DNA of 64,000 nucleotides, taken from the IMG/VR virus record IMGVR_UViG_3300048672_000851, positions 13,495-77,494 of that record; one strand, written 5' to 3'. Under the pieces are notes generated by a model. The model ran no database searches, was not told the DNA's origin, and saw only the letters and a program-made list of their open reading frames with translations. Below are positions 1 through 39,242 of the stretch, in pieces. Numbering within the stretch: position 1 is the first letter of the stretch; each line of letters opens with the position of its first letter. The translations under genes were made by a program, and so were the position numbers. This DNA is from a virus.

Positions 1-22
1 TATCTTCAAAAAGGAAACTACC

Positions 23-262
23 ATGTCAGAATTACAAACCAAATACGCAAATGTTCCTCATGCTACCGTTGAATTGATTCACGGAATTCCAGTAGAAAAC
101 TACAAAGAACAAGAGTTAGTTGATTTGATCAACAAAGCTCAACATGAACTTGAACAAGCTAAGAAATTAGCTGATGTAAGCACTCGCATGAAAAACAAAT
201 GCGAACGTCTGGAAACAAACATCAAAGTGTACATCGAAGCTCTGGATAAGTTACCAGAGTAA
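23..262 (+). CDS. hypothetical coiled-coil protein (79 aa)
   Basis: ORF with SD AAGGA, heptad-like C-terminal half. Confidence 0.8.
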   Translation: MSELQTKYANVPHATVELIHGIPVENYKEQELVDLINKAQHELEQAKKLADVSTRMKNKCERLETNIKVYIEALDKLPE

Positions 263-364
263 CCTTTTGTCCTAGGGAGCGAGTAACTACATTAAGCATA
301 AGTTATGCATTGTTACTTGGATAGGGAGTATCTCCCATCCTCTCCCTCTTTTATTCCTGCACAA

Positions 365-397
365 AGCCAGTTAGTTAATTCTAACTGGTTTTTTTTT
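365..397 (+). terminator. intrinsic terminator
   Basis: agccagttag/ctaactggtt stem followed by a T run. Confidence 0.85.
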
Positions 398-410
398 AGC
401 TGAGGTTTAT

Positions 411-719
411 GTGTCTGATGAACCAAAAGTAGTTACCATTGATATTTTACAAGATTACAGAAACCAGAACATTGTTACTTTAAGAGAAAAAATGTTTGCT
501 GAGTTAGCTACTTTTGGCAATAGTAAAACTAAGTTAAACATAAGTGATTACGTAGTTAGGTCTAAAAGAACCAATAAAGACTTTAGGTTAACTGTTAGCC
601 AAACAATAGATTTAATTCAGTTAGCTTTAGATTTATCTGAAAGTGTTTTATTTGAAGACAATGAAAACACAACTGAATTAGCTTCACAAATTCTAGAAAA
701 AATTAAGGATTCACAATGA
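411..719 (+). CDS. hypothetical protein
   Basis: ORF with GTG start after GAGGT; ATGA overlap with next gene. Confidence 0.7.
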   Translation: MSDEPKVVTIDILQDYRNQNIVTLREKMFAELATFGNSKTKLNISDYVVRSKRTNKDFRLTVSQTIDLIQLALDLSESVLFEDNENTTELASQILEKIKDSQ

Positions 720-1324
720 ATACTGGTTTTATTAATGGTTATCGTTGGGGTATTGAGTATCCGACGAATGGTAAGAAGCCGGATTTGGCGAATGATGTTT
801 TAGTAGACGTTAAATGTAAAAAGGGTAGCGGCGAATGGCAGGGCTGGACAGATATGACGGTTGCAGATACCGCATGGACAGAAGCACAAAATTATATCTC
901 AGCTACAAGTTTTAAGATTATCGACGAACGCTACAAACCATCAGATACGAGCTATTTAGACGCGCCAAATGTCAAGGAATCCTTGATGGATGAGTGGTAC
1001 GACTACGACAACCAAAAAGCGATTGCGTTGCCTAAGGCTGGTGAGTATTGCCAAGTTTATTTAAACGGTTGGTATAACTGCTACATCGTCGGGCTTGATG
1101 ATTTAGGTGGTTGCGTGTTCAGAAAAGATGGGGAGTATATGCAGCGAATTACGGATGATTCATTCCGCCCGCTTGACCACAACCGCAAATCTGAAGCAGA
1201 GAAAAAGCGGGTTGTTGATGCTGCCATGTCAATAGTTGTTGATGCGCATATGTTAGAGGACATTCTTGGTTCTTTATACGACGCAGGCTATTTGAGACTG
1301 CCAGATACAGATAAAGGGGAATAA
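716..1324 (+). CDS. hypothetical phage protein
   Basis: 202-aa ORF coupled to the upstream gene; codon usage richer in G/C than its neighbours. Confidence 0.8.
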   Translation: MNTGFINGYRWGIEYPTNGKKPDLANDVLVDVKCKKGSGEWQGWTDMTVADTAWTEAQNYISATSFKIIDERYKPSDTSYLDAPNVKESLMDEWYDYDNQKAIALPKAGEYCQVYLNGWYNCYIVGLDDLGGCVFRKDGEYMQRITDDSFRPLDHNRKSEAEKKRVVDAAMSIVVDAHMLEDILGSLYDAGYLRLPDTDKGE

Positions 1325-1333
1325 ATCCCCTTT
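1313..1333. terminator. hairpin between convergent genes, likely bidirectional terminator
   Basis: aaagggga-ataaa-tccccttt between convergent stop codons. Confidence 0.7.
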
Positions 1334-1335
1334 GC

Positions 1336-1485
1336 TTATTCTGTAGTAGGTTCTTCAATCATAACTTCTAGCATTTTAGTACCATGTTTTTGAAACTCAT
1401 AAAACCAATACTTTAATGCCATTAGTTCAACTGTATTCTCAGGTGCTACTACCATTGTGCCATCTGGTTTAAATTGAAGTACCAT
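1336..1485 (-). CDS. 49-aa hypothetical protein (MVLQFKPDGTMVVAPENTVELMALKYWFYEFQKHGTKMLEVMIEEPTTE), not in ORF track
   Basis: Hand translation; ATG 2 nt after the stop of the 1488-2204 gene; ends at the terminator hairpin. Confidence 0.7.
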   Translation of the reverse strand: MVLQFKPDGTMVVAPENTVELMALKYWFYEFQKHGTKMLEVMIEEPTTE

Positions 1486-1487
1486 AG

Positions 1488-2204
1488 CTAAACACTCACA
1501 TTAGTAGGATTAGCAGTTTGTTGAGTACCAACACCTGTTGATCCTACTACAACACTACTGTTAGTTGCTCTCGCAATCTGACCAACACCACCTAACAAAT
1601 TATTCAATTGCCATTGAAGATACTGCATCTGTTGTTGTTGCTGTGATTGCTGTTGGTTCATACCAATAGTAATTGTGTTAGTGTTTACGATTTCACGATT
1701 AATACTACGTTGTTCACTTTCACGTAGTTGTGCAACAGTTAATTGTTGCTCTAAATCAGCAATACGATTACTTGTAATTAAAGCTCGTGTTGCTTGTCCA
1801 TCAGCATAGATTGCTTGTTGAACAACAGTACTTTGTCTATCAACATTAGTATCTACTGTACCAATTTCACGACTTAAACTTGCTGCTAAATTAGCTTGAG
1901 CCAATGCAAATGCATTTTGATTTTGCATGATGTTTTGAGTACTAGCATTAATGTTTTGGTTCACTGTAGCAGTTGCACCAGCTAATGCTAATTGTACTTG
2001 TGCTTCATTAAATGGTATTGACGCTTTAATATCACCTAATGTTTGCTGGTTAATTGTTTCATTAGTAACAACATTATCTTGGTTTCCAAATAAACCAACA
2101 CGACCAAGTAATAAACCTAATAACAATCCACCACCTAAACCACCGTCCATACCACCACCAGAACCAAGACGACCAACAATATCACCTTCAGTAAAAGTTG
2201 CCAT
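1488..2204 (-). CDS. Gly-rich hydrophobic N-terminus / coiled-coil / Q-N-rich protein of unknown function
   Basis: SD GGAG before the ATG at 2204 (ORF track start 2216); GGGLLLGLLLG segment, DGQATRALITSN motif, poly-Q stretch. Confidence 0.85.
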   Translation of the reverse strand: MATFTEGDIVGRLGSGGGMDGGLGGGLLLGLLLGRVGLFGNQDNVVTNETINQQTLGDIKASIPFNEAQVQLALAGATATVNQNINASTQNIMQNQNAFALAQANLAASLSREIGTVDTNVDRQSTVVQQAIYADGQATRALITSNRIADLEQQLTVAQLRESEQRSINREIVNTNTITIGMNQQQSQQQQQMQYLQWQLNNLLGGVGQIARATNSSVVVGSTGVGTQQTANPTNVSV

Positions 2205-2282
2205 GATTAACTCCATTAATTAGCGCAACACGCGCATGTAAGTTATAGTCTGATTTCACTTCTACATATCAGGCCAACTAAA

Positions 2283-2465
2283 ATGTCACAGCATTACGTT
2301 ACTAAAGACGGTTTATGCTCGTACTGTGGTTCTCGATTAACTCAATGTCCTATTTGTCTTGAATGGTTCTTATCTAAAAGTAAAAACCATTTAATCTGTA
2401 CCAGTCGGTGCAGGACTAGAAAACATAGGAATAAAATTAACAACTTAGTGGATAAACAAACATGA
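2283..2465 (+). CDS. small Cys-rich (Zn-finger-like) protein
   Basis: CSYC, CPIC and CTSRC motifs plus a basic tail; ATGA overlap with next gene. Confidence 0.6.
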   Translation: MSQHYVTKDGLCSYCGSRLTQCPICLEWFLSKSKNHLICTSRCRTRKHRNKINNLVDKQT

Positions 2466-2836
2466 AAGATTTTAAAAAGTTAGATATGCAACAGCATGTG
2501 CGAGTTAAATTGCAAACCAATACACATTTAGATAAACCATTAGTTATTGGTGATCCACCAAACTTACTTAATGCCCAATGTGCTAATTGGACTGATGTTG
2601 TTGTGGTTGATGGTAAAGCTTATGACAAAGAAGCTGTAGCTCGTTTATTGATGCAGCTTAGTTTAGCTAAAACTAAAAATGAAATTCTTATTGATGCTTT
2701 AGATGGTGCAGCTAAAACAGTTGGCTTCTTGTCTTATCATCTTCGTGGCAGAGTTGCAGAAGAAGCTTTACTTGATATGGCTGCTAAAGCAGACGAATGG
2801 GCTAGTGTTGTAAAATCAGCTTCAGCACAGGAGTAA
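2462..2836 (+). CDS. hypothetical protein
   Basis: ORF in a tightly packed operon. Confidence 0.75.
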   Translation: MKDFKKLDMQQHVRVKLQTNTHLDKPLVIGDPPNLLNAQCANWTDVVVVDGKAYDKEAVARLLMQLSLAKTKNEILIDALDGAAKTVGFLSYHLRGRVAEEALLDMAAKADEWASVVKSASAQE

Positions 2837-2839
2837 ATC

Positions 2840-3319
2840 ATGGAACAACATAAACAAATTCAAATGTATATTGGTTTTGAAGAAGGTGGATGCCAAGATA
2901 TAGCCACGATAAAACTAGAAGGCTTCAGCCTAGTCGCAAACAACGAACTAGAAGCACTTAAAGCCGAGCGCGATGCGTTGGTGGCTCAGGTTGAGATTCT
3001 TAAAAACGCTGGCAATGAAGTCTATGATGAGCTTCAGCAGTGGGCTTTGACTGAAAGTCATAAGGAAACTGATAAAGCATTCCGCTTGTGGCTTAAAGCT
3101 AGAAAGCAATCACCGCAACAACACCTCGCCGAAATCCGCGCTGATGCGTCTGTCAGCGGCTACTACCAAGGTTTTAAAGATGGTCTTGTGATTGAATGTC
3201 CACGACCAGATGGCACAAATACTGCGTCTCCTATCAATTATCAGCAAGTGGCTATTGAGAATGCAGCTCGAATGAGAACCAGCCAATACGCCGCCAAAGT
3301 GCGCCAAGGCGGCCAGTGA
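2840..3319 (+). CDS. hypothetical protein with coiled coil
   Basis: SD AGGAG; LEALKAERDALVAQVE coiled coil. Confidence 0.75.
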   Translation: MEQHKQIQMYIGFEEGGCQDIATIKLEGFSLVANNELEALKAERDALVAQVEILKNAGNEVYDELQQWALTESHKETDKAFRLWLKARKQSPQQHLAEIRADASVSGYYQGFKDGLVIECPRPDGTNTASPINYQQVAIENAARMRTSQYAAKVRQGGQ

Positions 3320-3516
3320 TGCTTAATTACCATCAAGCATTAGGTCGTGCATTTCACGAACTTCAATCAACTTTTATTAAATTATTAAGAAGACATTCTT
3401 TATCTTTTATTGAAAAAATTGCTGGAGTTAAGTGCGGTGAAAATTTATTGCTTGTAGATATTCTTCAAGCTCAAAGAAAATTAAACAACTACTTTAAAAG
3501 AGAACTGTCTAAATGA
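3316..3516 (+). CDS. hypothetical protein
   Basis: Overlap-coupled ORF. Confidence 0.6.
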   Translation: MMLNYHQALGRAFHELQSTFIKLLRRHSLSFIEKIAGVKCGENLLLVDILQAQRKLNNYFKRELSK

Positions 3517-3740
3517 ACGGTATGTTAATAGCTTCCACTATTCAAATTGTTCCTTATAAGATTTATGGATTAACCATGTATGCTGTAGAAGGTTTATCTA
3601 TGAATTCTTATGAAGACTTTCAATTAGTTCAATTAAAATGGTTTTACAATAGTAATCTTGCTGTTAAGTACGTAGAACGTCATATGCAATTTTACAATAT
3701 TGTACAAGACCGTGAAATCAACCAACGTTTAAGGAATTAA
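3513..3740 (+). CDS. hypothetical protein
   Basis: ATGA-coupled ORF. Confidence 0.65.
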   Translation: MNGMLIASTIQIVPYKIYGLTMYAVEGLSMNSYEDFQLVQLKWFYNSNLAVKYVERHMQFYNIVQDREINQRLRN

Positions 3741-3744
3741 TATA

Positions 3745-3870
3745 ATGACAAATATCTACACAAACAATCCAAAAGGTTTCTTACAAACACAACGTACATT
3801 AGTTTCATTGTGTGTTGAATTAGCAATCATTCAAATGCGTAATGAAAGCTGGAAACGTCCGTTAGTTTAA
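3745..3870 (+). CDS. 41-aa hypothetical protein (MTNIYTNNPKGFLQ...WKRPLV), not in ORF track
   Basis: Hand translation; SD AAGGA; fills the gap between genes. Confidence 0.6.
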   Translation: MTNIYTNNPKGFLQTQRTLVSLCVELAIIQMRNESWKRPLV

Positions 3871-3882
3871 AAGGTCAATCTT

Positions 3883-4131
3883 ATGTTGAACCAGCAAGAC
3901 TTGAAAGAAATTGAAATCCAAGAAAACATTAAGCTAATCAACATGCAGTGGCATCTAGTTAAAAGTAATACTGCTGGCTTAATGTTTGTATGTCCTGTTA
4001 TTGGTGGTTGGTTAGTTAAAGAAGTTCAGAATGTAATTACACCTACTGAGCGAAGTAGCTTTAACACAGGCTATAGCTACACATCTTCAATGGTGTTTGT
4101 TCCTGATCCAAATCATGAATGGTTCTACTAG
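3883..4131 (+). CDS. hypothetical protein
   Basis: ORF; GGWLVK...FVPDPNH motif seen in small phage proteins. Confidence 0.7.
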   Translation: MLNQQDLKEIEIQENIKLINMQWHLVKSNTAGLMFVCPVIGGWLVKEVQNVITPTERSSFNTGYSYTSSMVFVPDPNHEWFY

Positions 4132-4132
4132 T

Positions 4133-4636
4133 ATGAATAACAGACCAGTAATCATTGAGCTTATTGAAAAAGGCTACAACAACGCTGAAATCAAATCAGC
4201 TACCCATTGTACTTTACGATACATTCGTAATATCCGGTCAGAGTACAATGACAGTTCGCCCATTCCCAAGCTATCCCGTCATAAGGCACCTGCTGAAAAT
4301 ACCCTAGCCAGAAAAGCCTATGACATGATCAAAGCTAACCCCTTGCTAACAGACAGGGAAATCGCAGATGCTACTGGGATGACTCGTGCAAGCGTATACT
4401 GCACCCGTAGACGGTACTTTGGTATGGTCAACATCAAGCTCAATACCTACCATATTGAGTACGGTACCAACAGTAAAAAAGGTGCTGCCTTAGTCCAAGC
4501 AGCCACACAAAAAGAAGCAGAACACAAGCTAGTCAATGCTTTGTCCTTACCCTTATGGGCAGTAGACAAAGTGTCTATGCTTCGTACATTGCCTGCTGTG
4601 ATGCAATTACAGCATACCGACAGTTACCATTTCTGA
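4133..4636 (+). CDS. HTH DNA-binding protein
   Basis: Two HTH-like segments (GYNNAEIKSATHCTLRYIRNIR; LTDREIADATGMTRASVYCTRRR); ATG at 4133 just after the upstream stop. Confidence 0.7.
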   Translation: MNNRPVIIELIEKGYNNAEIKSATHCTLRYIRNIRSEYNDSSPIPKLSRHKAPAENTLARKAYDMIKANPLLTDREIADATGMTRASVYCTRRRYFGMVNIKLNTYHIEYGTNSKKGAALVQAATQKEAEHKLVNALSLPLWAVDKVSMLRTLPAVMQLQHTDSYHF

Positions 4637-4644
4637 GGTGTTTT

Positions 4645-5139
4645 ATGAACAAAAGTCCGTTTATTCAAAAAGAACTAGAAATACTACATACTCGACTTCA
4701 TCAAATTGATGAAAACACTTTTATAGATAGCATGTTGCAGATTATCCGCAATGCTACTGGAAAAGTGTACTCACTTCATGTTGATGTAGAAGAAAAGAAA
4801 GAAACCAAACATCCGGTTACTGCTCAAGACTTCTTAGAAGCCATTGCAAAAGTACAAAGTAATCGTGGTGCAGAGTATGAAGAACAAAGTAAAGAAGAAC
4901 GTAGCTTTGCTAAGGTTGCTGCTTCATACAATGCTATTCGTGACACTAATTTAGCTGGTTCAGATATTGCTTTGATCCAAGCACAATTAAAGTTCGTTCG
5001 CCAATACTCTAATCCTGAACGTATTCACCATGATTCATTGTTAGATGCTCCAAGCTACACTGTCTTATGGTCAAGTGAACTCATGGCTGAAGCAGCGGAG
5101 AAACAACAATGTCTGAAAACAAACCCTTCTTCCGAATAG
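4645..5139 (+). CDS. DUF6378-like (dATP/dGTP diphosphohydrolase-related) protein
   Basis: RGAEY...ERSFAKVA...LKFVR...HHDSLLD..SY pattern; SD GAGGTG before ATG 4645. Confidence 0.55.
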   Translation: MNKSPFIQKELEILHTRLHQIDENTFIDSMLQIIRNATGKVYSLHVDVEEKKETKHPVTAQDFLEAIAKVQSNRGAEYEEQSKEERSFAKVAASYNAIRDTNLAGSDIALIQAQLKFVRQYSNPERIHHDSLLDAPSYTVLWSSELMAEAAEKQQCLKTNPSSE

Positions 5140-5291
5140 AAGAAAAAGATAAGTTTTTTCCTTATCTCAAAATTATGGCTGGTGACAAAGAAATCACGTA
5201 TACCGAACTGGTTCATGCTGCTAATGTCATGCGTGACAAGTTAGCTGGGTTCGGTATTCGAGTTGACTTCACTAAAAAGGATAAACAATGA
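5109..5291 (+). CDS. hypothetical protein
   Basis: ORF with SD GGAG. Confidence 0.65.
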   Translation: MSENKPFFRIEEKDKFFPYLKIMAGDKEITYTELVHAANVMRDKLAGFGIRVDFTKKDKQ

Positions 5292-5629
5292 CTCCTGAAC
5301 AGTTTCAAGAAATGACCGATAAAATGACTGTAGAAGAATTCAAAGAATACTGTGTAACGAATAAAATTTCGTTCATTTTATCTTACGCTTCTGATTCAGA
5401 TATTAATAAAGCTGCTGCTTGTAGCTTCTTTATTAACAGTAAAAACGAAGGAAATCTTCAACACGCTATGTCTAAAGAAGCTGCCAGAATCTCAGCAGCT
5501 AGTATGTGTATTAGTAAAAATTTAAAAGATCAAGAACTAATTGCCTTAGTTCAATTTTTAGGTGAATTGGATTTTCAAAAAGCCTATTTACCTAATGAAG
5601 AAGAAGAAACACCGAAATACTTAAATTAG
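5288..5629 (+). CDS. hypothetical protein
   Basis: ORF with SD AAGGA. Confidence 0.75.
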   Translation: MTPEQFQEMTDKMTVEEFKEYCVTNKISFILSYASDSDINKAAACSFFINSKNEGNLQHAMSKEAARISAASMCISKNLKDQELIALVQFLGELDFQKAYLPNEEEETPKYLN

Positions 5630-5641
5630 GTTACAATATGT

Positions 5642-5670
5642 TTGACATTGTACGCTCCGCGTACTAATAT
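5642..5670 (+). promoter_or_regulatory. sigma70-like promoter (TTGACA-N17-TAATAT) with an N4 vRNAP-type hairpin in its spacer
   Basis: TTGACA 5642-5647; TAATAT 5665-5670; gtacgc-TCC-gcgtac 5650-5664. Confidence 0.65.
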
Positions 5671-5715
5671 TGATTAAAGGCTGTTAATTAGCCCTTATCA
5701 ATAACGAGGTGTAAC

Positions 5716-5832
5716 ATGGATTATGAATTTCTGAATGATGTTGAAGAAACATCTGAAGTAACTCAAGATAATTCCGACCTGTATACCTTCACTATCGAAG
5801 GTGACAAAGTTGAAACTATCTTTGAAGTTTAA
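5716..5832 (+). CDS. 38-aa highly acidic microprotein (MDYEFLNDVEETSEVTQDNSDLYTFTIEGDKVETIFEV), not in ORF track
   Basis: Hand translation; strong SD GAGGTG; own promoter and terminator; 12 D/E versus 1 K. Confidence 0.8.
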   Translation: MDYEFLNDVEETSEVTQDNSDLYTFTIEGDKVETIFEV

Positions 5833-5849
5833 CTACCAAACGCTGGTCT

Positions 5850-5882
5850 AAAAGCCCTGACTAGTTCAGGGCTTTTTATTTT
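5850..5882 (+). terminator. intrinsic terminator
   Basis: aaaagccctga/tcagggctttt stem plus T tract. Confidence 0.85.
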
Positions 5883-5907
5883 GTAGTACCTAAATCAAAG
5901 AACTCCT

Positions 5908-6054
5908 ATGAACGAATTTTTACTTAATAACCCGTGGGTTATCCTAGCTGCTATGGTATTAGCTGGTGCAGCTACTATTATGGCCGCTACTTTAGCAGTC
6001 TTTTGGTTTGGTTATTTAATTACCTATCCATTTCGCACAAAAGACTATCGCTGA
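5908..6054 (+). CDS. 48-aa membrane peptide, not in ORF track
   Basis: Hand translation MNEFLLNNPWVILAAMVLAGAATIMAATLAVFWFGYLITYPFRTKDYR; long hydrophobic span. Confidence 0.55.
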   Translation: MNEFLLNNPWVILAAMVLAGAATIMAATLAVFWFGYLITYPFRTKDYR

Positions 6055-6167
6055 ATACAATCCGTATTTCAATTAAATTACAATCTCAATGACAAACACT
6101 TATTTAGTCTGGTAGCATTACTAGGCCAGACATGGCGTTTTCCCTGTGAGGTTGTGTGTTTACACAA

Positions 6168-6198
6168 AAGGCTATTCAAATTGAATAGCCTTATTTTT
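6168..6198 (+). terminator. intrinsic terminator
   Basis: aaggctattcaa/ttgaatagcctt stem plus T-rich tail. Confidence 0.75.
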
Positions 6199-6211
6199 AT
6201 CGGAAACACTA

Positions 6212-6394
6212 ATGGCTTACTCACTTATAGTTGTCTTATTTATTGGTTCCACTCCTGTTCTCTATGAACAACCCAAATCCACTAAAGAACAATGTCTACT
6301 TGAAGCCAAACAAGTTAAACGTACATTCAGACAACTTAAGTTTGTGTTTCCTAACTTATTTGTTCAATCAGCCTACTGCATGGAGATCAAATGA
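6212..6394 (+). CDS. small hypothetical protein with hydrophobic N-terminus
   Basis: ORF; ATGA overlap with next gene. Confidence 0.65.
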   Translation: MAYSLIVVLFIGSTPVLYEQPKSTKEQCLLEAKQVKRTFRQLKFVFPNLFVQSAYCMEIK

Positions 6395-6807
6395 ATAAAC
6401 TTGAAAAAGGATCTGAGTATGAAATTACAGCTATTATGTTGTTTCCTACTCCAACTCCTAGTTGCAATGTCATTGAAGTAAGTACATCAAAATACACAGT
6501 AACAGAAATGATTAACCCACTTACTTCTGTATACCAACTGGTTTCAGAATGGGGAACTGTTACTGAACGAACTGTATTTGTGTTTGATCCAAAATACTTC
6601 AAAAGTATCTCTAAAAGCCTTTGTGGTTGTTCTTTCTATGTTCCAGAAGAACATAAGCAAGAGTTTATCAAACTAGTTTATGATTTACTGAAATCTAATA
6701 AAATGGATTTAATTAAATCTGTTACTGAACAACTCAATGCAGTTAAAAACAACTACAAAGAGTTCTGTAAGAAAAACCCAGAGGAATTATCTATCTATGA
6801 CCTCTAA
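6391..6807 (+). CDS. hypothetical protein
   Basis: ORF with SD GGAG. Confidence 0.75.
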   Translation: MNKLEKGSEYEITAIMLFPTPTPSCNVIEVSTSKYTVTEMINPLTSVYQLVSEWGTVTERTVFVFDPKYFKSISKSLCGCSFYVPEEHKQEFIKLVYDLLKSNKMDLIKSVTEQLNAVKNNYKEFCKKNPEELSIYDL

Positions 6808-7369
6808 GCCAACAATCATTGTTAAAAAAGCTGAACGTAATACTCAAGCCATGTACAATAAGTGGTGGGAAGAAAAGGCTTTAGTTTTCTTTAGCAATAT
6901 TAATACAGTACCTATGCTTATGCATCTCGGTACTGCATTAACCTATCCTGACTCTAAGGTAAGAGAGCAGTCAATTAATAACGGTGTATTTCCATACCGT
7001 ATTTACATTGGTTCTACTTTTAGCGAAGATGGACAGGATTATTTCAATTACCAAGAGTTAACTACAGTACCTAAACACTTAACTTATAACCAATTCAAAG
7101 ATTTGGTTAAAGATAAACTTCGTGCTTCAGGTGTTGCTTTAGGTAACAAGTTAATCAACCAATTTCACATTGTCATTCCATTAGGTTATGAGTTAACTGA
7201 AGAATACTTAGGTAAGCTTCTTAATGAATACCGAGTATGGACACCACTAGGAAACATGATCCATGAGTCAACTACACTTCCAACTGTTATCCAAAACATT
7301 ATCGCCAGCACAGTTAACCACTATGTTGCAACTTCAACACGAAACCAACTGCGCTCTAATCGACCCTAA
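6797..7369 (+). CDS. hypothetical protein
   Basis: ORF track 6737-7369; likely start ATG 6797 after GAGG. Confidence 0.7.
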   Translation: MTSKPTIIVKKAERNTQAMYNKWWEEKALVFFSNINTVPMLMHLGTALTYPDSKVREQSINNGVFPYRIYIGSTFSEDGQDYFNYQELTTVPKHLTYNQFKDLVKDKLRASGVALGNKLINQFHIVIPLGYELTEEYLGKLLNEYRVWTPLGNMIHESTTLPTVIQNIIASTVNHYVATSTRNQLRSNRP

Positions 7370-8039
7370 CTATTTAATCACTCGTGATGAAAAAGTAGAC
7401 TTCCTGCTTGCAGCAGAACAAGAAGCTTCTGAAGCTATTGATCACTTGGATTGGAAATGGTGGGCTAAAAACCCAGCACCATTAGACTTGTGCCAATTAC
7501 AATTGGAATTCATTGATGTAATTCACTTTGCATTATCTCAATGTATGATTGATGGTCATAACTTTATTTTAAGTCGTGGTTCAACTAACGTTGATGAAGT
7601 CTTCAAAGTATTTGAAGAAAAAGTTGCTACACTAATTACATCTCAATTTGGCAACGAAATGACTCAACGAATTACAGAAGATGTAGGCATTGACTCATTT
7701 GACACAACGATTATTTCAATGCTTCGTCAGATGAAAGTATGTTGTTTAGATTACCAAGCTGCACCTTTGTTGATAAATGCTTTGATTGCCTGTCATATCA
7801 CTGGCATGACACCAGAAGACGTTTACACTACCTATGTCAAAAAGGCTGTGTTAAACCGCTTCCGTCGAGCCAATGGTTACAAAGAAGGCACCTACAACAA
7901 GCTGTGGTCTGGTCTTGAAGATAACGTGTATTTGGACACCGTAGCTTCTACGATTGATCCTAATGACCCCAACTACGTGAATAGCCTGTATTCTCAACTG
8001 ACTATGGAATACGCTGCTCACAACCAACAACAACACTAA
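7263..8039 (+). CDS. dut: dimeric (all-alpha) dUTPase
   Basis: EASEAIDHLDWKWW, LEFIDVIHF and LNRFRRANGYKEGTYNKLWSGLEDN motifs of the dUTPase_2 family. Confidence 0.85.
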   Translation: MSQLHFQLLSKTLSPAQLTTMLQLQHETNCALIDPNYLITRDEKVDFLLAAEQEASEAIDHLDWKWWAKNPAPLDLCQLQLEFIDVIHFALSQCMIDGHNFILSRGSTNVDEVFKVFEEKVATLITSQFGNEMTQRITEDVGIDSFDTTIISMLRQMKVCCLDYQAAPLLINALIACHITGMTPEDVYTTYVKKAVLNRFRRANGYKEGTYNKLWSGLEDNVYLDTVASTIDPNDPNYVNSLYSQLTMEYAAHNQQQH

Positions 8040-8042
8040 TGT

Positions 8043-8071
8043 ATAGGGGGGCTTAGGCTCCCCTATTTTTT
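8043..8071 (+). terminator. intrinsic terminator
   Basis: ataggggggc/gctcccctat stem plus T run. Confidence 0.8.
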
Positions 8072-8081
8072 AGGGAATTTT

Positions 8082-8423
8082 ATGATCCTCTACCAAGACA
8101 ACACCCCTATTCCTGTAACCGTTAAATCTCCCTCTTCATTCGGCTTTGTACGGCTCTATCACTCATTCTCTGGCAAGTATATTGCTACCCTACCTGCTCG
8201 CTTTGTACGTCAAAAGGTAGGCTCTATTACGTACAATGACCACGTTTATCGCTGGATGGATTACAACGGTTCTGTTATTGAAAAAGACGGTACGATTTAC
8301 ATTATCGGACCCCATCATTACGCATTCTATCTCTGCCCTAAAAATACTTGGAAAGAAAGTGCTACTTTCACAAACGAACAATTAAAAATCCAAGCTAGAG
8401 AAGACCGCAAAAATAGAAAGTAA
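8082..8423 (+). CDS. hypothetical protein
   Basis: ORF with SD AGGGA. Confidence 0.7.
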   Translation: MILYQDNTPIPVTVKSPSSFGFVRLYHSFSGKYIATLPARFVRQKVGSITYNDHVYRWMDYNGSVIEKDGTIYIIGPHHYAFYLCPKNTWKESATFTNEQLKIQAREDRKNRK

Positions 8424-8437
8424 GCTCCGCTTACTTT
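8417..8437 (+). promoter_or_regulatory. N4 vRNAP-type hairpin promoter
   Basis: aaagtaagc-TCC-gcttacttt; template strand reads GC-GGA-GC as in N4 early promoters. Confidence 0.65.
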
Positions 8438-8452
8438 TCTGAGATAATAATT

Positions 8453-8632
8453 ATGAAAGATTTACTTTTTGCTTATATTGAGCTTAATTCCGTTTTGGAT
8501 TACACCCACACAGATAAATACGTTGAAGTTAGAGAATTGATTATTCAATTTAATCAGGATATGTCCACTAACTTTGATCCAGACAATACTACCTTGGAAT
8601 ACCTGTCTTATGATCACTCCTTTAGATCTTGA
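8453..8632 (+). CDS. 59-aa acidic hypothetical protein, not in ORF track
   Basis: Hand translation MKDLLFAYIELNSVLDY...SYDHSFRS; first ORF after the hairpin promoter. Confidence 0.55.
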   Translation: MKDLLFAYIELNSVLDYTHTDKYVEVRELIIQFNQDMSTNFDPDNTTLEYLSYDHSFRS

Positions 8633-8966
8633 TCAAGTTACCTTTCTTGCTTCTATTCAATGTCCAGTTGTACTTAAATTAAATCAGTTTCAAGATTTAA
8701 TTGACATCTACAAAGCCAAAAATCTTATCAAGATTGATGTTAAAAAAACTGTAGAAAACAAAGTTACTTCTTATCTTGCTTTAGGTGATATTCAATTCTG
8801 CTTTGAAGAAGAATCACAGTTATTGGGTAAAACAAAAATCCATACCATTAAAGCTACAGAGTATCTAATAGGAAACTATGTTGATGCTATTAAATCTGAA
8901 TTAGCTTATTTGGGTTACAAAGAAGAAAGACTTCAAATCTCAGGGGATGACTTGTTTGATGATTGA
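8610..8966 (+). CDS. hypothetical protein
   Basis: ORF track 8574-8966; first ATG at 8610. Confidence 0.7.
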   Translation: MITPLDLDQVTFLASIQCPVVLKLNQFQDLIDIYKAKNLIKIDVKKTVENKVTSYLALGDIQFCFEEESQLLGKTKIHTIKATEYLIGNYVDAIKSELAYLGYKEERLQISGDDLFDD

Positions 8967-8976
8967 GGCTTAAATT

Positions 8977-9369
8977 ATGTCTATAGGTGAATATAACTAC
9001 ACTCTTGTTAAGATGTTTCCTGAGATTTACTGGATTAATGAAAAATCCAGAATCAAATTTAATTCACAAGAAGAAGTAATAGATTTTCTTGCTGCTTATA
9101 TCTTAGATTGTGGCTATAACAATCAATCCGTTTATATTAAGTTTTATGAAAGATACTTAATATATTTTAGATCTTCACTTGGGTATATTCCTGTGTTTTT
9201 GTTAAAAGAACACTCTAAAATTAAAACAAGTAGTTTCTCTGACTTTATTGCTTTAACACTACCTTCAATTAATACTTTTAGTTGTGAAGAAATAAGACAT
9301 CTTATAGCTGAAAAAATAAAAGAAAAAGATCGAGCGTTATTTGATTACCTTTTAAGTAGAGGAAATTAA
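8977..9369 (+). CDS. FP[DE][IV]YW paralogue family member 1
   Basis: YTLVKMFPEIYW...DFLAAYILD...IAEKIKEKDRALFDYLLSR. Confidence 0.8.
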   Translation: MSIGEYNYTLVKMFPEIYWINEKSRIKFNSQEEVIDFLAAYILDCGYNNQSVYIKFYERYLIYFRSSLGYIPVFLLKEHSKIKTSSFSDFIALTLPSINTFSCEEIRHLIAEKIKEKDRALFDYLLSRGN

Positions 9370-9732
9370 ATGTCACACAGTTACTATCAACTCACTAAAA
9401 TGTTTCCTGATGTTTATTGGAAAGATGGTAAACCAACTATCCCATTTATTTCTGATACAGAATTAGTAGATTTTTTAGTTGAATATGTCCTAGATAACTA
9501 TGAAGAAGATTCCGGTATTTATATTTCCAAAAATGAATTGCTATCAAAATACAAAAACACAGGAAACACAAAATTTAATTGTGTCTGGAATGGGCGTACA
9601 GCAATAAACGGTTTTCTTATAGAACTAGGACTCAATAACCCAGTTTTTCTTAGAAAAAGCGCAGCAAATCGAATAAAAGAGTTAAATCCAGTAGTACATG
9701 AAATACTTTCTATTAGAGAGAAAACAACATAA
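9370..9732 (+). CDS. FP[DE][IV]YW paralogue family member 2
   Basis: YQLTKMFPDVYWKDGKP...DFLVEYVLD...AANRIKELNPVVHEILSIR. Confidence 0.8.
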   Translation: MSHSYYQLTKMFPDVYWKDGKPTIPFISDTELVDFLVEYVLDNYEEDSGIYISKNELLSKYKNTGNTKFNCVWNGRTAINGFLIELGLNNPVFLRKSAANRIKELNPVVHEILSIREKTT

Positions 9733-10166
9733 TGACACCTAAACAGTTTTATCAAGCTTCTTGTTTATTTCCAGATATTTACTGGCCTAATGGTAGACCT
9801 ATAGTTCAATTTGATAAAAAATCAGAAGTAGGTGAGTTTGTTATTCTTTATTTAAAGGATTGCTATTTAGTAGACACATGGGTAGCTATAGAAGAACTAG
9901 CTTCAAAAAGAAGTTTTTCTATTTATCGAATGTCAGGTACTCATCTTTTACGCAAACAATTGCCTGTGTTCCTGCAAAGCGATAACGGTTATTTCAGTAA
10001 CTTAATTACAGCACTGCTTTCAAATAAAAACATAGATCCAGAAGAAGTTAAAGAAAGTATAGCTATTGATTTAAGAAACAACCACCCAGAAATCTTTAAT
10101 GTATTACATGAAAGATATATATCTATAATGTTAAAGAGTGACAATAAACATGGTTATGGAATCTAA
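9732..10166 (+). CDS. FP[DE][IV]YW paralogue family member 3
   Basis: QFYQASCLFPDIYWPNGRP...EFVILYLKD...IAIDLRNNHPEIFNVLHERY. Confidence 0.8.
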   Translation: MTPKQFYQASCLFPDIYWPNGRPIVQFDKKSEVGEFVILYLKDCYLVDTWVAIEELASKRSFSIYRMSGTHLLRKQLPVFLQSDNGYFSNLITALLSNKNIDPEEVKESIAIDLRNNHPEIFNVLHERYISIMLKSDNKHGYGI

Positions 10167-10509
10167 TCAAGAAATCATTGATAACTTGTATTTTGTATAT
10201 AAGTTAACTAATGATCCAAAGTGTATTGATATTCCAATAGATTTCCCTAAACGCTTTACTGAAGATGAAATGTTTAGTTTTATTAAGCTGCTTGGTATAG
10301 CGGGTATGGTAGCGCGTAGAATATCTAAAGCTAAACACTTTACCAATACACTTTATCAATTTAACGATAAGTTTAATTTTCAATATCGAGTACAAAATAG
10401 TAAATCTCTTGTTAGCTTTTTAAGTGATAACAATACCGCTGACTTAGATGACAACTACTTAACTGTAAGCGATTCTCTTGTTGAATACTTCTTTAAGGGT
10501 AAAGTGTAA
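10138..10509 (+). CDS. hypothetical protein inside the paralogue array
   Basis: ORF coupled to both neighbours; start uncertain. Confidence 0.7.
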   Translation: MTINMVMESNQEIIDNLYFVYKLTNDPKCIDIPIDFPKRFTEDEMFSFIKLLGIAGMVARRISKAKHFTNTLYQFNDKFNFQYRVQNSKSLVSFLSDNNTADLDDNYLTVSDSLVEYFFKGKV

Positions 10510-10958
10510 TGTCTCCTGAGCAATTCTATAAAGCTTCATGCTTATTTCCTGAAATCTATTGGCCAAGCGGTGTACCTATAGTTACGTATGAGCATATGGA
10601 TGATGTTCTTGAATTCATGTGTTTATATGTATTGGATTACGGTCAATTAGATCAATCCATTCAAATAAAAACAACTATAGGAAGTGATAAAGTTCATCCT
10701 TATGTTTTTAGAACAAGAAAAGCTTTTAATAAACATGAGTTTTTAGAGCCAGCTTTTATACGGATGAATAAAGCATTAAGTGCATCTTTAATGTACAGTA
10801 CTATGGAATTCAATCAGTTGATTTTAAAATTGTACCAACCCAAATCTATAGAAGATGCAGATTACCTCTCCACCTCTAAGTACAGATTAGCTAAATTAAT
10901 TCAAGAAAGGGACAGAAACTTATATGACACCCTTGTTGATAGATACTTATTTTCCTAA
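10509..10958 (+). CDS. FP[DE][IV]YW paralogue family member 4
   Basis: QFYKASCLFPEIYWPSGVP...EFMCLYVLD...LAKLIQERDRNLYDTLVDRY. Confidence 0.8.
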   Translation: MSPEQFYKASCLFPEIYWPSGVPIVTYEHMDDVLEFMCLYVLDYGQLDQSIQIKTTIGSDKVHPYVFRTRKAFNKHEFLEPAFIRMNKALSASLMYSTMEFNQLILKLYQPKSIEDADYLSTSKYRLAKLIQERDRNLYDTLVDRYLFS

Positions 10959-11367
10959 CTTTGCTTGGTTAAGGAAATTTCATCCAGAAGTGTATGGATT
11001 CAATGTAGTATCTTTTGAGTTATCTCCTGATGATGCTTCCAGAATGATAATTGATTTCATAGTAGAGAAGCTTGAAAATAGTTTAACTGTTGTAATTGCA
11101 CTATCAGAAGACGGAAAAAAAGTTATTTCTGCGGAGGTGTACAACGGTATAGTTAAACTTGGTTCAATAAATTATATCTTTGCAAGATTTATTTACACTG
11201 AATTTCCAAAACCACATAGTTTTTTATTTGATGTAGAAAAGGTTAGGAAATTGGTTTTAATTAGTCTTCGTACTGACCCTAGAACAAAAGATCATCCATA
11301 TATAACTTACCAAGAATACCCTAAACCTTTTTCTACATACGTATTAGGCGACTTCCATGACAAATGA
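10924..11367 (+). CDS. possible divergent member 5 of the paralogue family
   Basis: FAWLRKFHPEVYG...IIDFIVEKLE resembles the family N-terminus. Confidence 0.65.
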   Translation: MTPLLIDTYFPNFAWLRKFHPEVYGFNVVSFELSPDDASRMIIDFIVEKLENSLTVVIALSEDGKKVISAEVYNGIVKLGSINYIFARFIYTEFPKPHSFLFDVEKVRKLVLISLRTDPRTKDHPYITYQEYPKPFSTYVLGDFHDK

Positions 11368-11680
11368 AGAATTAGAACAAGAGATAGAACATATTAAAAT
11401 GCTCCTGTCTCTCAATGTTCCCATTGTGTTTGATCCAGTAAATAAAATTTATGATGCTCTTGCAGCAGCTACTTTATTTGCAGCAATACAAGCTGCAAAA
11501 TTAGACAATAAAAACATTATTGTTGGGTTCAACACAGAAAAAACAGTTAATTATGTTTTTGCTCGTAATTTAACTCTTAATGAATTCACTAACAAATTAA
11601 ACGTAAATTTAAAGGTCACTACAGATGAACTACGCAGAACTACTGTATCGGATTATATTGTCGATGTTGACCTCGGTTGA
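11357..11680 (+). CDS. hypothetical protein
   Basis: ORF overlapping the previous stop. Confidence 0.7.
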   Translation: MTNEELEQEIEHIKMLLSLNVPIVFDPVNKIYDALAAATLFAAIQAAKLDNKNIIVGFNTEKTVNYVFARNLTLNEFTNKLNVNLKVTTDELRRTTVSDYIVDVDLG

Positions 11681-11840
11681 GGTCTTGTTAGTTACAGATA
11701 GTAACTTACTCGCTTATTTTACTTTAGGCTTCTTGGCTTTTTATGCGTCTATTGATTTAATCATAGTGCCGTATGAGGCATACCTTTATTCATTGGAATT
11801 GGATGACTATGAAGATGACGTACAAAGATACAATAAGTGA
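11625..11840 (+). CDS. putative membrane protein
   Basis: Hydrophobic LLAYFTLGFLAFYASIDLIIVPY segment and acidic tail; start uncertain. Confidence 0.45.
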   Translation: MNYAELLYRIILSMLTSVEVLLVTDSNLLAYFTLGFLAFYASIDLIIVPYEAYLYSLELDDYEDDVQRYNK

Positions 11841-12027
11841 AATTCAAGTAGCAAAAAATAGAACAGTTGTTTATCAACTACTTTCTAAAGCAGGTATTGA
11901 AGCTGGTGGTATTGGTAATTCTATTTCTCGTTTAATTAGCAAAGCAGTAAGAGATAAAGATTATCAATTAGGTGTTCTATTAAGAACAGCTAAAGCCAGA
12001 TTAGACCAATTGGAGAACATCCAATGA
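11773..12027 (+). CDS. hypothetical protein
   Basis: ORF; true start probably further downstream. Confidence 0.6.
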   Translation: MRHTFIHWNWMTMKMTYKDTISEIQVAKNRTVVYQLLSKAGIEAGGIGNSISRLISKAVRDKDYQLGVLLRTAKARLDQLENIQ

Positions 12028-12212
12028 CAAAATCAATGCTATCAAATATGAGTGTGGATGAATTAGCTAAACAAATTTTAGGTAATAAAGATCCCACATT
12101 CGATTACAAAACTGCTGCTGAAATCCTTGCTGCTAAAACCCAAATCCTTTCATTCCATTACAAACAGCTAGAACATGACGTACAAGTTTTAGCTTCTAAT
12201 ACCAATCGTTAA
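12024..12212 (+). CDS. hypothetical protein
   Basis: SD GGAG; ATGA overlap. Confidence 0.7.
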   Translation: MTKSMLSNMSVDELAKQILGNKDPTFDYKTAAEILAAKTQILSFHYKQLEHDVQVLASNTNR

Positions 12213-12218
12213 ATAAAC

Positions 12219-12239
12219 AGGGTCGGCTCCGCCGACTCT
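12219..12239 (+). promoter_or_regulatory. N4 vRNAP-type hairpin promoter
   Basis: (agg)gtcggc-TCC-gccgac(tct) in the intergenic gap before the AAA ATPase. Confidence 0.6.
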
Positions 12240-12264
12240 TATAAACATCCCAAAGGAAAACACC

Positions 12265-13455
12265 ATGTCTAGTATTAACTTTGATTTAAATTATGATCAG
12301 TGCAAAGAACAAGTAAAAATGGTTCTTAAAGCTGGTTTGGTTCCAATGATTGAATCAGCGCCGGGAATCGGTAAATCTTCAATGATGCGTGAAATCGCTG
12401 AAGAACTGGATTTATTCCTGATTGACGAACGTATCTCTACTCGTGAACCGTCAGATATGACTGGTTACGTGTTACCTACAGACAGCGTGGATTTAAACGG
12501 TAATCCATTCAAACAAATCCAAACTGCCCCTCTGGACATTTGGCCACTGGAACACACTCCATTACCAATCAACCCAAAAACAGGCCAACCATATAAAGGC
12601 TGGTTGATCTTCTTGGATGAATTACGTTCAGCTACTCCTGCTGCACAAGCTGCCTGTTACCGTGTCCTGTTAGACCGTGAAATCGGCAACAAGAAGCTGC
12701 ATAAGCGTGTTCTGTTGGCTGCTGCATCTAACCGTATGGAAGACAACGCTGTTGTTCATGACGCTGGTACAGCAATGCAATCACGTTTGACTTGGTTGGG
12801 TTTACGTTCAGATTTAGACATCTGGATCAACAACGTAGCTATTGGCCGTAGTCTGGATGCTCGTGTAACTGCTTTCGTACAGTGGAAAGGCATTCAAGCA
12901 CTGAACAACTTCAACCCAGATCACCAAGAAAAAACATTCACTTGTGAACGTACTTGGGAAATGGCCAGCAAGATTTTGAAGAAAAACTTCCCACAAGTCG
13001 GCCCGATTCCTAACGAGTATGCTGCTGTATTCGTAGGTACAATCGGTCAAAGCATGGCTTTGGAATTCATCGCATTCACTCAAATTTACTCTAATTTAGT
13101 GACATTTGATGATATTGTACAAAACCCATTAGGTGTAGCAGTTGACGTTAACCGTCCTGACATTATGTTTGCTACCGTGTCTAACATTCAAAGTAATTTG
13201 AATGCAAGCAACATGGGTACTGCGCTTGATCCAGTAATGAAATTCATTAACCGCGTTGGTATTGAATTCCAAGCACTTGTTGTACAACACATTTTACGTA
13301 CTGACCCTATGGTTGCACGTACAAACAATGAAGTTGTTACTTGGATTAGCCAGAAACAAACTTTCTTGAACAATAAACGTGCTCAGGTACAGGCAATTCC
13401 AATGCCACCACAACCATCAACACAAGATGATGACGATGCCCCTGATGCACCGTGA
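12265..13455 (+). CDS. MoxR-like AAA+ ATPase (N4 gp24-like)
   Basis: Walker A SAPGIGKS, Walker B LIFLDE, sensor AASN, TCERTWE. Confidence 0.9.
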   Translation: MSSINFDLNYDQCKEQVKMVLKAGLVPMIESAPGIGKSSMMREIAEELDLFLIDERISTREPSDMTGYVLPTDSVDLNGNPFKQIQTAPLDIWPLEHTPLPINPKTGQPYKGWLIFLDELRSATPAAQAACYRVLLDREIGNKKLHKRVLLAAASNRMEDNAVVHDAGTAMQSRLTWLGLRSDLDIWINNVAIGRSLDARVTAFVQWKGIQALNNFNPDHQEKTFTCERTWEMASKILKKNFPQVGPIPNEYAAVFVGTIGQSMALEFIAFTQIYSNLVTFDDIVQNPLGVAVDVNRPDIMFATVSNIQSNLNASNMGTALDPVMKFINRVGIEFQALVVQHILRTDPMVARTNNEVVTWISQKQTFLNNKRAQVQAIPMPPQPSTQDDDDAPDAP

Positions 13456-39189: not shown

Positions 39190-39242
39190 GGTTTTCACTC
39201 TCCTAGATGATGCATCAAGCATACCCCAAGAGATGATCCAAG

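Follow-up and report, generated by a model that had tools for sequence, protein, structure and literature searches.

Can a single intergenic site in a phage genome present a promoter to a phage RNA polymerase (RNAP) and, around it, the boxes of a host-type promoter, and what sort of gene would such a site serve? Positions 5642-5882 of a 64,000-nucleotide (nt) stretch of viral DNA raise this question. The stretch, hereafter the window, belongs to one contig of 77,494 bp (JGI/IMG, freshwater metagenome; IMG/VR record IMGVR_UViG_3300048672_000851), of which it covers bases 13495-77494. An initial annotation, made from the letters alone, described here a stand-alone gene for a 38-amino-acid (aa) acidic microprotein, under a hairpin of the type read by the virion RNA polymerase (vRNAP) that is itself nested in a sigma70 promoter. 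A hairpin placed exactly between host-type -35 and -10 boxes is an unusual overlap. We describe the locus as a real, compact and largely self-contained cassette of a freshwater N4-like phage, situated past the RNAPII genes in the middle-type region; this explanation as a whole, including the mechanism set out below, we judge moderately probable.

The phage is, to judge from its gene content, an uncultured N4-like member of the Schitoviridae, because it encodes a 3417-aa vRNAP (minus strand, window 28969-39222), a major capsid protein that along its entire length shares 51-56% identity with its counterparts in N4-like phages of Alteromonas, Vibrio and Pseudoalteromonas, a gp24-like ATPase, a gp25-like protein and a helicase, all in the window, together with two RNAPII subunits upstream of it (contig 6726-8646). 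The phage collection holds no close relative, and a megablast search of window positions 5000-7000 against phages returned zero matches.

A compact cassette behind an N4-type hairpin

Careful inspection of the + strand reveals all elements of the unit in close succession. The -35-like hexamer TTGACA (5642-5647), a perfect consensus, is followed by a 17-nt spacer (5648-5664) that encloses the promoter hairpin GTACGC-TCC-GCGTAC (5650-5664), which we call H1, with the heptamer GCTCCGC at 5654-5660 and its loop centre at C5657. The -10-like hexamer TAATAT (5665-5670) stands 17 nt past the -35, matches 4/6 positions and keeps A2 and T6. On either strand, the DNA of H1 folds at -5.3/-5.4 kcal/mol, with z about -4. 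The 5' end of the predicted transcript forms a 36-nt RNA stem-loop (5668-5703; -10.7 kcal/mol, z -3.9), behind which come the Shine-Dalgarno sequence GAGGTG (5706-5711; GAGG to ATG, 6 nt), the open reading frame (ORF) for the 38-aa acidic peptide (5716-5832; 12 D/E, 1 K, stop TAA) and an intrinsic terminator (5850-5876, with a T run to 5882) with an 11-bp stem, a 5-nt loop and z -5.0. The boxes with their spacer-filling hairpin, the stem in the 5' untranslated region, the Shine-Dalgarno sequence, the acidic ORF and the strong terminator are each found where the initial annotation had placed them, and its stand-alone microprotein cassette holds up as a compact unit with a plausible protein-coding microORF behind an N4-type hairpin. 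This anatomy, like the hairpin family, the codon usage and the presence in relatives described below, is a matter of direct observation.

H1 has siblings. The heptamer GCTCCGC with complementary flanks occurs in four copies in the genome, all on the + strand and all at gene boundaries, and we refer to these hairpins as class II. H0 (contig 8688) lies outside the window, 42 nt past the end of the RNAPII large-subunit gene; H1 (contig 19148, which is window 5654) heads the acidic microORF cassette; H2, AAAGTAAGC-TCC-GCTTACTTT (window 8417-8437, heptamer at 8424, contig 21918), stands 15 nt 5' of the ORF at 8453; and H3, GTCGGC-TCC-GCCGAC (window 12222-12236, heptamer at 12226, contig 25720), is 5' of the gp24-like ATPase gene at 12265. 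The pattern GTNNGCTCCGCNNAC has three occurrences in the window against 0.2 expected, and a fourth lies outside the window, upstream on the contig. The class II consensus reads GT-NN-GCTCCGC-NN-ACT, and while the NN positions vary among copies, their complementarity is kept. Ahead of H0 and H1, at the same distance of 25 nt from the heptamer, stands the shared sequence G-N-TTA-N-AATATG-N-T (contig 8664-8675 for H0, window 5630-5641 for H1); H2 and H3 lack it, and it may be left over from a duplication or serve as an upstream promoter element.

An invariant head on variable stems is the known signature of the N4 promoter type, and GCTCCGC is identical in the coliphage N4 promoters P2 (562) and P3 (4551). 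Across eight GCTCCGC sites from three phages (this phage, N4 and Vibrio phage VBP47), which were chosen as hairpins, so that their pairing is partly a product of ascertainment, 100% of the stem cells pair, with compensatory changes on both sides in 4/6 stem pairs. This result was matched by 0/500 shuffles, and slid controls paired only to 23-48%. Promoters of vRNAP carry a GC-rich heptamer centred at -11 with inverted repeats on both sides, and the loop on the template strand, 5'-GGA-3', is closed by G:C (PMC4496689). H1 follows this design, with a heptamer of the form GC-T[C/T]C-GC, a 3-nt loop closed by G:C and a 6-bp stem, within the 5-7 bp typical of N4, where the non-conserved bases can vary as long as they pair. 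Like P2 and P3, it presents GC-GGA-GC on the template, varying complementary outer pairs and an A/T-rich stretch past the stem; unlike them, it ends its stem in AC-T where N4 has C-TTTT, and has no GG start at +1/+2. Judged by these sequence features, H1 is a genuine N4-type promoter hairpin.

The 38-codon ORF is most likely translated, because its Shine-Dalgarno sequence is well spaced, its codon usage is gene-like and it is free of indels in three related assemblies. An in-frame TAG at 5689-5691 leaves ATG 5716 as the sole start available to it, and the JGI/IMG gene call for the contig contains exactly this 38-aa protein. The per-codon frame log-likelihood of the ORF is +0.60, compared with +0.44 +/- 0.18 for in-frame windows of long genes and -0.84 for out-of-frame windows, 0/6000 of which reach +0.60. 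With this score the ORF ranks best of 151 small ORFs; the same peptide written with random synonymous codons scores 0.33 +/- 0.08.

The related assemblies come from three other freshwater metagenomes (two studies), whose contigs cover 4939-5953 at about 95-99% identity. Contigs from four runs were compared, and the changes given here are the best supported among the differences listed. Indels among these are a 1-nt deletion at 5865, in the terminator loop, one at 6152, in intergenic sequence, and those at 5450 and 5456, which sum to +3 inside the upstream gene. The sole listed change common to all three runs is T>C at 5684, in the loop of the 5' stem-loop.

How, then, would the cassette work? 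The answer is an inference as regards the polymerase that reads the gene, where the transcript starts, whether its 5' stem-loop is a stabiliser and what the protein does. H1 would be extruded from supercoiled DNA, and its template strand would be read by a phage polymerase of the single-subunit type, with transcription starting about 11-15 nt past the loop centre, at 5668-5672. The N4 rule, with the loop centre at -11, places +1 at 5668, which is exactly the first base of the 36-nt stem-loop; a spacing like that of phage LUZ7 gives G5672, and a sigma70 start near 5677 would retain the inner hairpin only. Full pairing of the 5' end classically protects mRNA from 5'-end-dependent decay, and the stable 5'-terminal stem-loop may act as such a stabiliser here. 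The resulting RNA of about 210 nt would comprise the stem-loop, the Shine-Dalgarno sequence, the 38-codon ORF and the strong intrinsic terminator, and its product is probably a small, very acidic and abundant phage peptide. While the hairpin stays unextruded, the sigma70-like boxes may give host RNAP access to the same gene; the cassette would work without them.

Phage polymerases and the two hairpin classes

Which phage polymerase would read H1 is judged here from genomic position and by comparison with LUZ7. The class II hairpins, H0 to H3, without exception stand past the RNAPII genes (contig 6726-8646). N4 vRNAP promoters occupy the leftmost location, 5' of the RNAPII genes, with Ts from -4 to -1 and a start on G at +1; H1 lies ~15.7 kb from the probable left end and is followed by TAATATTG, the first G being 15 nt past the loop centre (G5672).

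The left early region carries hairpins of a second kind. These class I hairpins occur in five copies between contig 3.8 and 6.2 kb (3825-6165), ahead of RNAPII, with loops at contig 3833, 4293, 4840, 5650 and 6147, and each stands in front of a gene. Their 4-nt loops, AT(A/T)C, are closed by C:G and followed by an A/T spacer and then GG 12-13 nt from the loop centre. They resemble the TAC-loop hairpins of VBP47 and those of LUZ7 at 3668 and 3700, the latter standing ~33 nt apart before the Drc gene. By ONT-cappable-seq, the two strongest early promoters of LUZ7 are in tandem ~33 nt apart before Drc (PMC9163698), and by this analogy the class I hairpins are probably the true vRNAP promoters of the phage.

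LUZ7 also offers a counterpart to class II. Its middle promoters, ascribed to RNAPII, are GC-rich hairpins with a stem of at least 6 bp and a 3-4-nt loop, ~15 bp before a G start (PMC9163698). GC-rich TCC-loop hairpins are found in LUZ7 at 8244 (8238-8256) and 9528 (9521-9541), the first directly after the RNAPII gene; we tied the LUZ7 hairpins to the published promoters through the description in that paper, not through its coordinate tables. H1 shares with this middle type its GC-rich 6-bp stem (4 G:C pairs), its 3-nt TCC loop, the G at 15 nt after the loop centre (G5672) and the post-RNAPII position, the first class II copy, like the first in LUZ7, standing directly past an RNAPII gene. The two differ in their closing pairs, which are TC-TCC-GA in LUZ7 and GC-TCC-GC here, and this phage, unlike LUZ7, has no detectable homologue of Drc, or of N4 gp1 or gp2.

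Because the class II hairpins lie past the RNAPII genes and because of the LUZ7 analogy, we lean towards the heterodimeric RNAPII as the polymerase that reads them, H1 included. Reading by the injected vRNAP is a somewhat less likely but serious alternative. In the alignment of the phage vRNAP to that of N4, contact residue W129 is replaced by F, and K114, R119, D901 and R904 are not conserved, although the two proteins are too divergent for this low-confidence alignment to bear on the choice. The vRNAP-type hairpin of the initial annotation stands as an N4-type promoter hairpin, with the P2/P3 heptamer, four copies and compensatory stems; its reading by the virion polymerase does not follow, given the post-RNAPII position, the separate class at the left end and the similar LUZ7 middle hairpins. 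Like LUZ7, VBP47 has more than one kind of hairpin, its early region (sites at 4477-4499 and 7257-7276) holding both TAC-loop and GCTCCGC hairpins. A pair of hairpin classes in each genome may thus be the rule among non-Enquatrovirus Schitoviridae.

The acidic peptide and its surroundings

The peptide has a net charge of about -11. AlphaFold, run on the single sequence, returned a low-confidence model (predicted local distance difference test score, pLDDT, 59.6) with a C-terminal beta-hairpin at residues 23-36 and a disordered acidic N-terminal half. A tblastn search for relatives of the ORF gave no match in 50,697 phage records at E 10. In a word-indexed search of 5.8 billion proteins, for which the query was the peptide plus two in-frame leader codons (40-aa minimum), it matched only itself. 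HMMER against 1.84 billion representatives found the peptide itself and two long InlB-B-repeat surface proteins; we do not regard the latter as homologues, since the 25-aa matches fall in several of their repeats and are read as compositional or beta-strand similarity. Pfam, PHROGs, PDB and the ESM Atlas held nothing for the peptide.

T7 Ocr, T7 Gp2, ArdA and the mimic-type anti-CRISPR proteins (Acrs) are small acidic proteins of about 64-170 aa that occupy nucleic-acid-binding surfaces. The peptide resembles them in its strong negative charge and its early/middle phage region; unlike them, it has only 38 aa, no match in PDB, Pfam, PHROGs or phage genomes, and no confident fold. It shows neither similarity to a known mimic nor a rigid DNA-like acidic surface, its acidic half being predicted as disordered. 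The anti-defence or nucleic-acid-mimic role put forward by the initial annotation is a conjecture from acidity, with no homologue, no confident fold and a length far below that of Ocr, ArdA or the mimic Acrs. We nonetheless commit to a guess, from charge and genomic setting alone: the peptide, with its disordered acidic N-terminal half and short C-terminal beta-hairpin, might act in host takeover or counter-defence by attaching to a protein of host or phage at a basic surface that binds nucleic acids.

The genome contains only one other small, very acidic ORF on the + strand (contig 12190-12414; 74 aa, 14 D/E, 2 K/R, with a Shine-Dalgarno sequence), and its sequence is unrelated to the peptide. 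Right after the terminator, window 5908-6054 encodes a 48-aa hydrophobic single-pass membrane peptide, with a gene-like codon score of 0.46 and no clear Shine-Dalgarno sequence. Window 6055-6200 is non-coding and highly structured (z -4.6), with a long imperfect hairpin at 6074-6162 and then an 11-bp terminator at 6168-6192; similarity to the three related assemblies stops abruptly at 6198. These freshwater contigs are mosaic: the block 4807-6198 is common at about 95-99%, the flanks differ in every run, and loose contig ends fall at 4632, 4807/4808 and 6198, a pattern that suggests module exchange among these phages. A 3.3-kb Logan contig carries a variant of the neighbouring 60-aa gene. The 113-aa gene that is the 5' neighbour of the cassette has no relatives in IMG/VR or in the JGI metagenomes, and the ATPase gene has none in IMG/VR.

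Host-type boxes and competing readings

We now turn to the boxes around H1. Measured against a -35 of TTGACA and a TATAAT-like -10 at 16-18 bp, they score 10/12 with a 17-nt spacer. They are the best + strand sigma70 match in window 1-13000. In this genome, 4.8e-4 of positions would place a 15-nt element wholly in the spacer of a sigma70 match that reaches 10/12 or better, so that the chance of such an enclosure is ~0.002 for the four class II hairpins and 0.004 for all nine promoter hairpins, one of which has the boxes. The other 26 hairpin promoters of this phage, N4, LUZ7 and VBP47 reach only 5-9/12, which makes H1 unique among 27. Sigma70-like matches are otherwise depleted: the whole contig has 13 of at least 10/12 compared with 42 +/- 6.6 in Markov simulations, and window 1-13000 has 24 of at least 9/12 compared with 46.9 in dinucleotide shuffles. 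Because such sites are two- to three-fold rarer than in simulated or shuffled sequence, a strong one in an intergenic gap stands out. Terminator-like hairpins show the opposite trend and are enriched (25 vs 7). Searches elsewhere gave no counterpart, as the strict promoter pattern had 0 matches in IMG/VR, and a looser box geometry had 7 matches there and at least 119 in JGI metagenomes; none of the matches listed has complementary flanks, and their flank-pair counts equal chance. The sigma70 overlay is thus statistically notable, a single instance, and without comparative support. Of the nested sigma70 promoter in the initial annotation we retain the boxes, which are present and improbable by chance; we do not carry over their use by host RNAP, given the single instance and the absence of recurrence among the viral and metagenome matches listed.

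Could host sigma70 holoenzyme and phage RNAP nevertheless share this one site? Supercoil-driven extrusion would destroy the duplex -35/-10 geometry and hand the site to the phage polymerase, and relaxed or replicating DNA would restore a strong host-type promoter, so that the microprotein would be made very early or in mid-infection and late, or whenever phage polymerases fail. An engineered counterpart has been published: an N4 P1 hairpin between the rrnB -35 and -10 abolished promoter activity in vivo unless gyrase was inhibited (Dai et al. 1997, via PMC4496689). The likeness lies in the N4-type hairpin between the two boxes, which in the construct made the host promoter gyrase-sensitive in vivo; that construct was an artificial extrusion probe, whereas the present site is natural sequence and a putative promoter. 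From this likeness, a topology-dependent polymerase switch is mechanistically reasonable. The perfect -35, the optimal 17-nt spacer, the A2 and T6 of the -10, the AT-rich upstream sequence, the rarity of the enclosure and the general depletion of sigma70-like sites argue in the same direction, as does the report that about 20% of LUZ7 host-RNAP late starts are on the Watson strand (PMC9163698). However, there is one instance only, and the box geometry never coincides with complementary flanks among the IMG/VR and JGI matches listed. Moreover, the -10 overlaps the A/T-rich stretch present after every class II hairpin, and because of that stretch a partial -10 match is cheap. We consider a shared site unlikely, if worth keeping in mind.

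The arrangement also recalls the promoter-early stem-loops (PeSLs; PMC2839356, PMC4122927), sigma70-like promoters that harbour a stem-loop and stand before small ORFans. In T4-like phages their stem-loop lies mostly between -35 and -10 or over the -10, and the cassettes flank ORFans (PMC2839356). On this view H1 would be a terminator or attenuator of the upstream gene, under a host-type promoter, and a recombination hotspot that shuffles ORFans; in fact, the 113-aa gene ends 13 nt 5' of the -35 with no other terminator there, and the relatives are mosaic around the block, with breaks at 4632/4807 and 6198. Yet PeSLs recur in many copies per genome as one sigma70 promoter with an RNA-terminator stem-loop, whereas here that combination is a single copy within a phage-RNAP promoter family, the sigma70 boxes accompanying only one of the four class II hairpins. 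H1 is not of the G/C-tract terminator type and, with 6 bp of stem and a weak U tract, would terminate poorly, and the mosaic breakpoints are not at the hairpin, so we regard this origin as very improbable. Hardly better placed is the proposal that the ORF is a leader peptide, the translation of its 38 codons controlling how often transcripts pass the 5850 terminator and enter the small genes behind it, such as that of the 48-aa membrane protein at 5908. The ORF is short, its terminator follows within 18 nt and the next + strand genes have no obvious promoter of their own before 8424; in the predicted folds, however, the terminator stays independent and no antiterminator pairing competes with it, runs of regulatory codons are absent from the ORF, and the ORF uses codons as a well-expressed gene does. 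Somewhat less remote, though still improbable, is a unit whose main product is a structured small RNA of about 210 nt, with an ORF that is incidental or only secondarily translated. The predicted 217-nt RNA is far above shuffles (z -4.9) and the ORF interior is moderately structured (z -2.6); LUZ7 makes abundant small RNAs of <250 nt (PMC9163698); and the two locatable differences in the unit, among those listed (5684, 5865), are both in loops. The z-score, however, is largely due to the 5' stem-loop and the terminator, translation is favoured by the strong Shine-Dalgarno sequence, unique start and gene-like codon usage, and the RNA belongs to no Rfam family, its sole match being the rimP leader at E 0.38, below threshold.

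The translated cassette read by a phage polymerase, which we prefer, has its own difficulties. The heptamer of H1 is exactly that of N4 vRNAP, and RNAPII is assigned by position and LUZ7 analogy only; position separates the classes imperfectly, as the VBP47 GCTCCGC hairpins are also 5' of an annotated RNA polymerase gene; and H1-H3 are without the conserved G start of N4 and LUZ7. On the side of the peptide, acidic GAN-rich codons inflate frame scores, the predicted fold is of low confidence, and the ORF, with no homologue among the 5.8 and 1.84 billion proteins, is known only from near-identical relatives, too close to one another to reveal purifying selection.

The most far-reaching version of these ideas combines both levels. 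It envisages a natural supercoiling-gated dual promoter that toggles one gene between the phage single-subunit RNAP and the host holoenzyme, ensuring the acidic effector whichever polymerase is available, together with two hairpin classes in which the canonical N4 hairpin has been reassigned to a different polymerase or infection stage in this lineage. We hold this combination to be decidedly unlikely. Were the boxes functional, the site would be a natural version of the 1997 extrusion construct, in which DNA topology picks the polymerase. The peptide is a candidate host-takeover or counter-defence factor. If RNAPII reads H1, this phage, like LUZ7, would use the N4 vRNAP hairpin grammar for middle transcription too. 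The defining heptamer of N4 early promoters would in that case act at a different stage in other members of the family, which would bear on the evolution of promoter specificity in the two phage polymerases.

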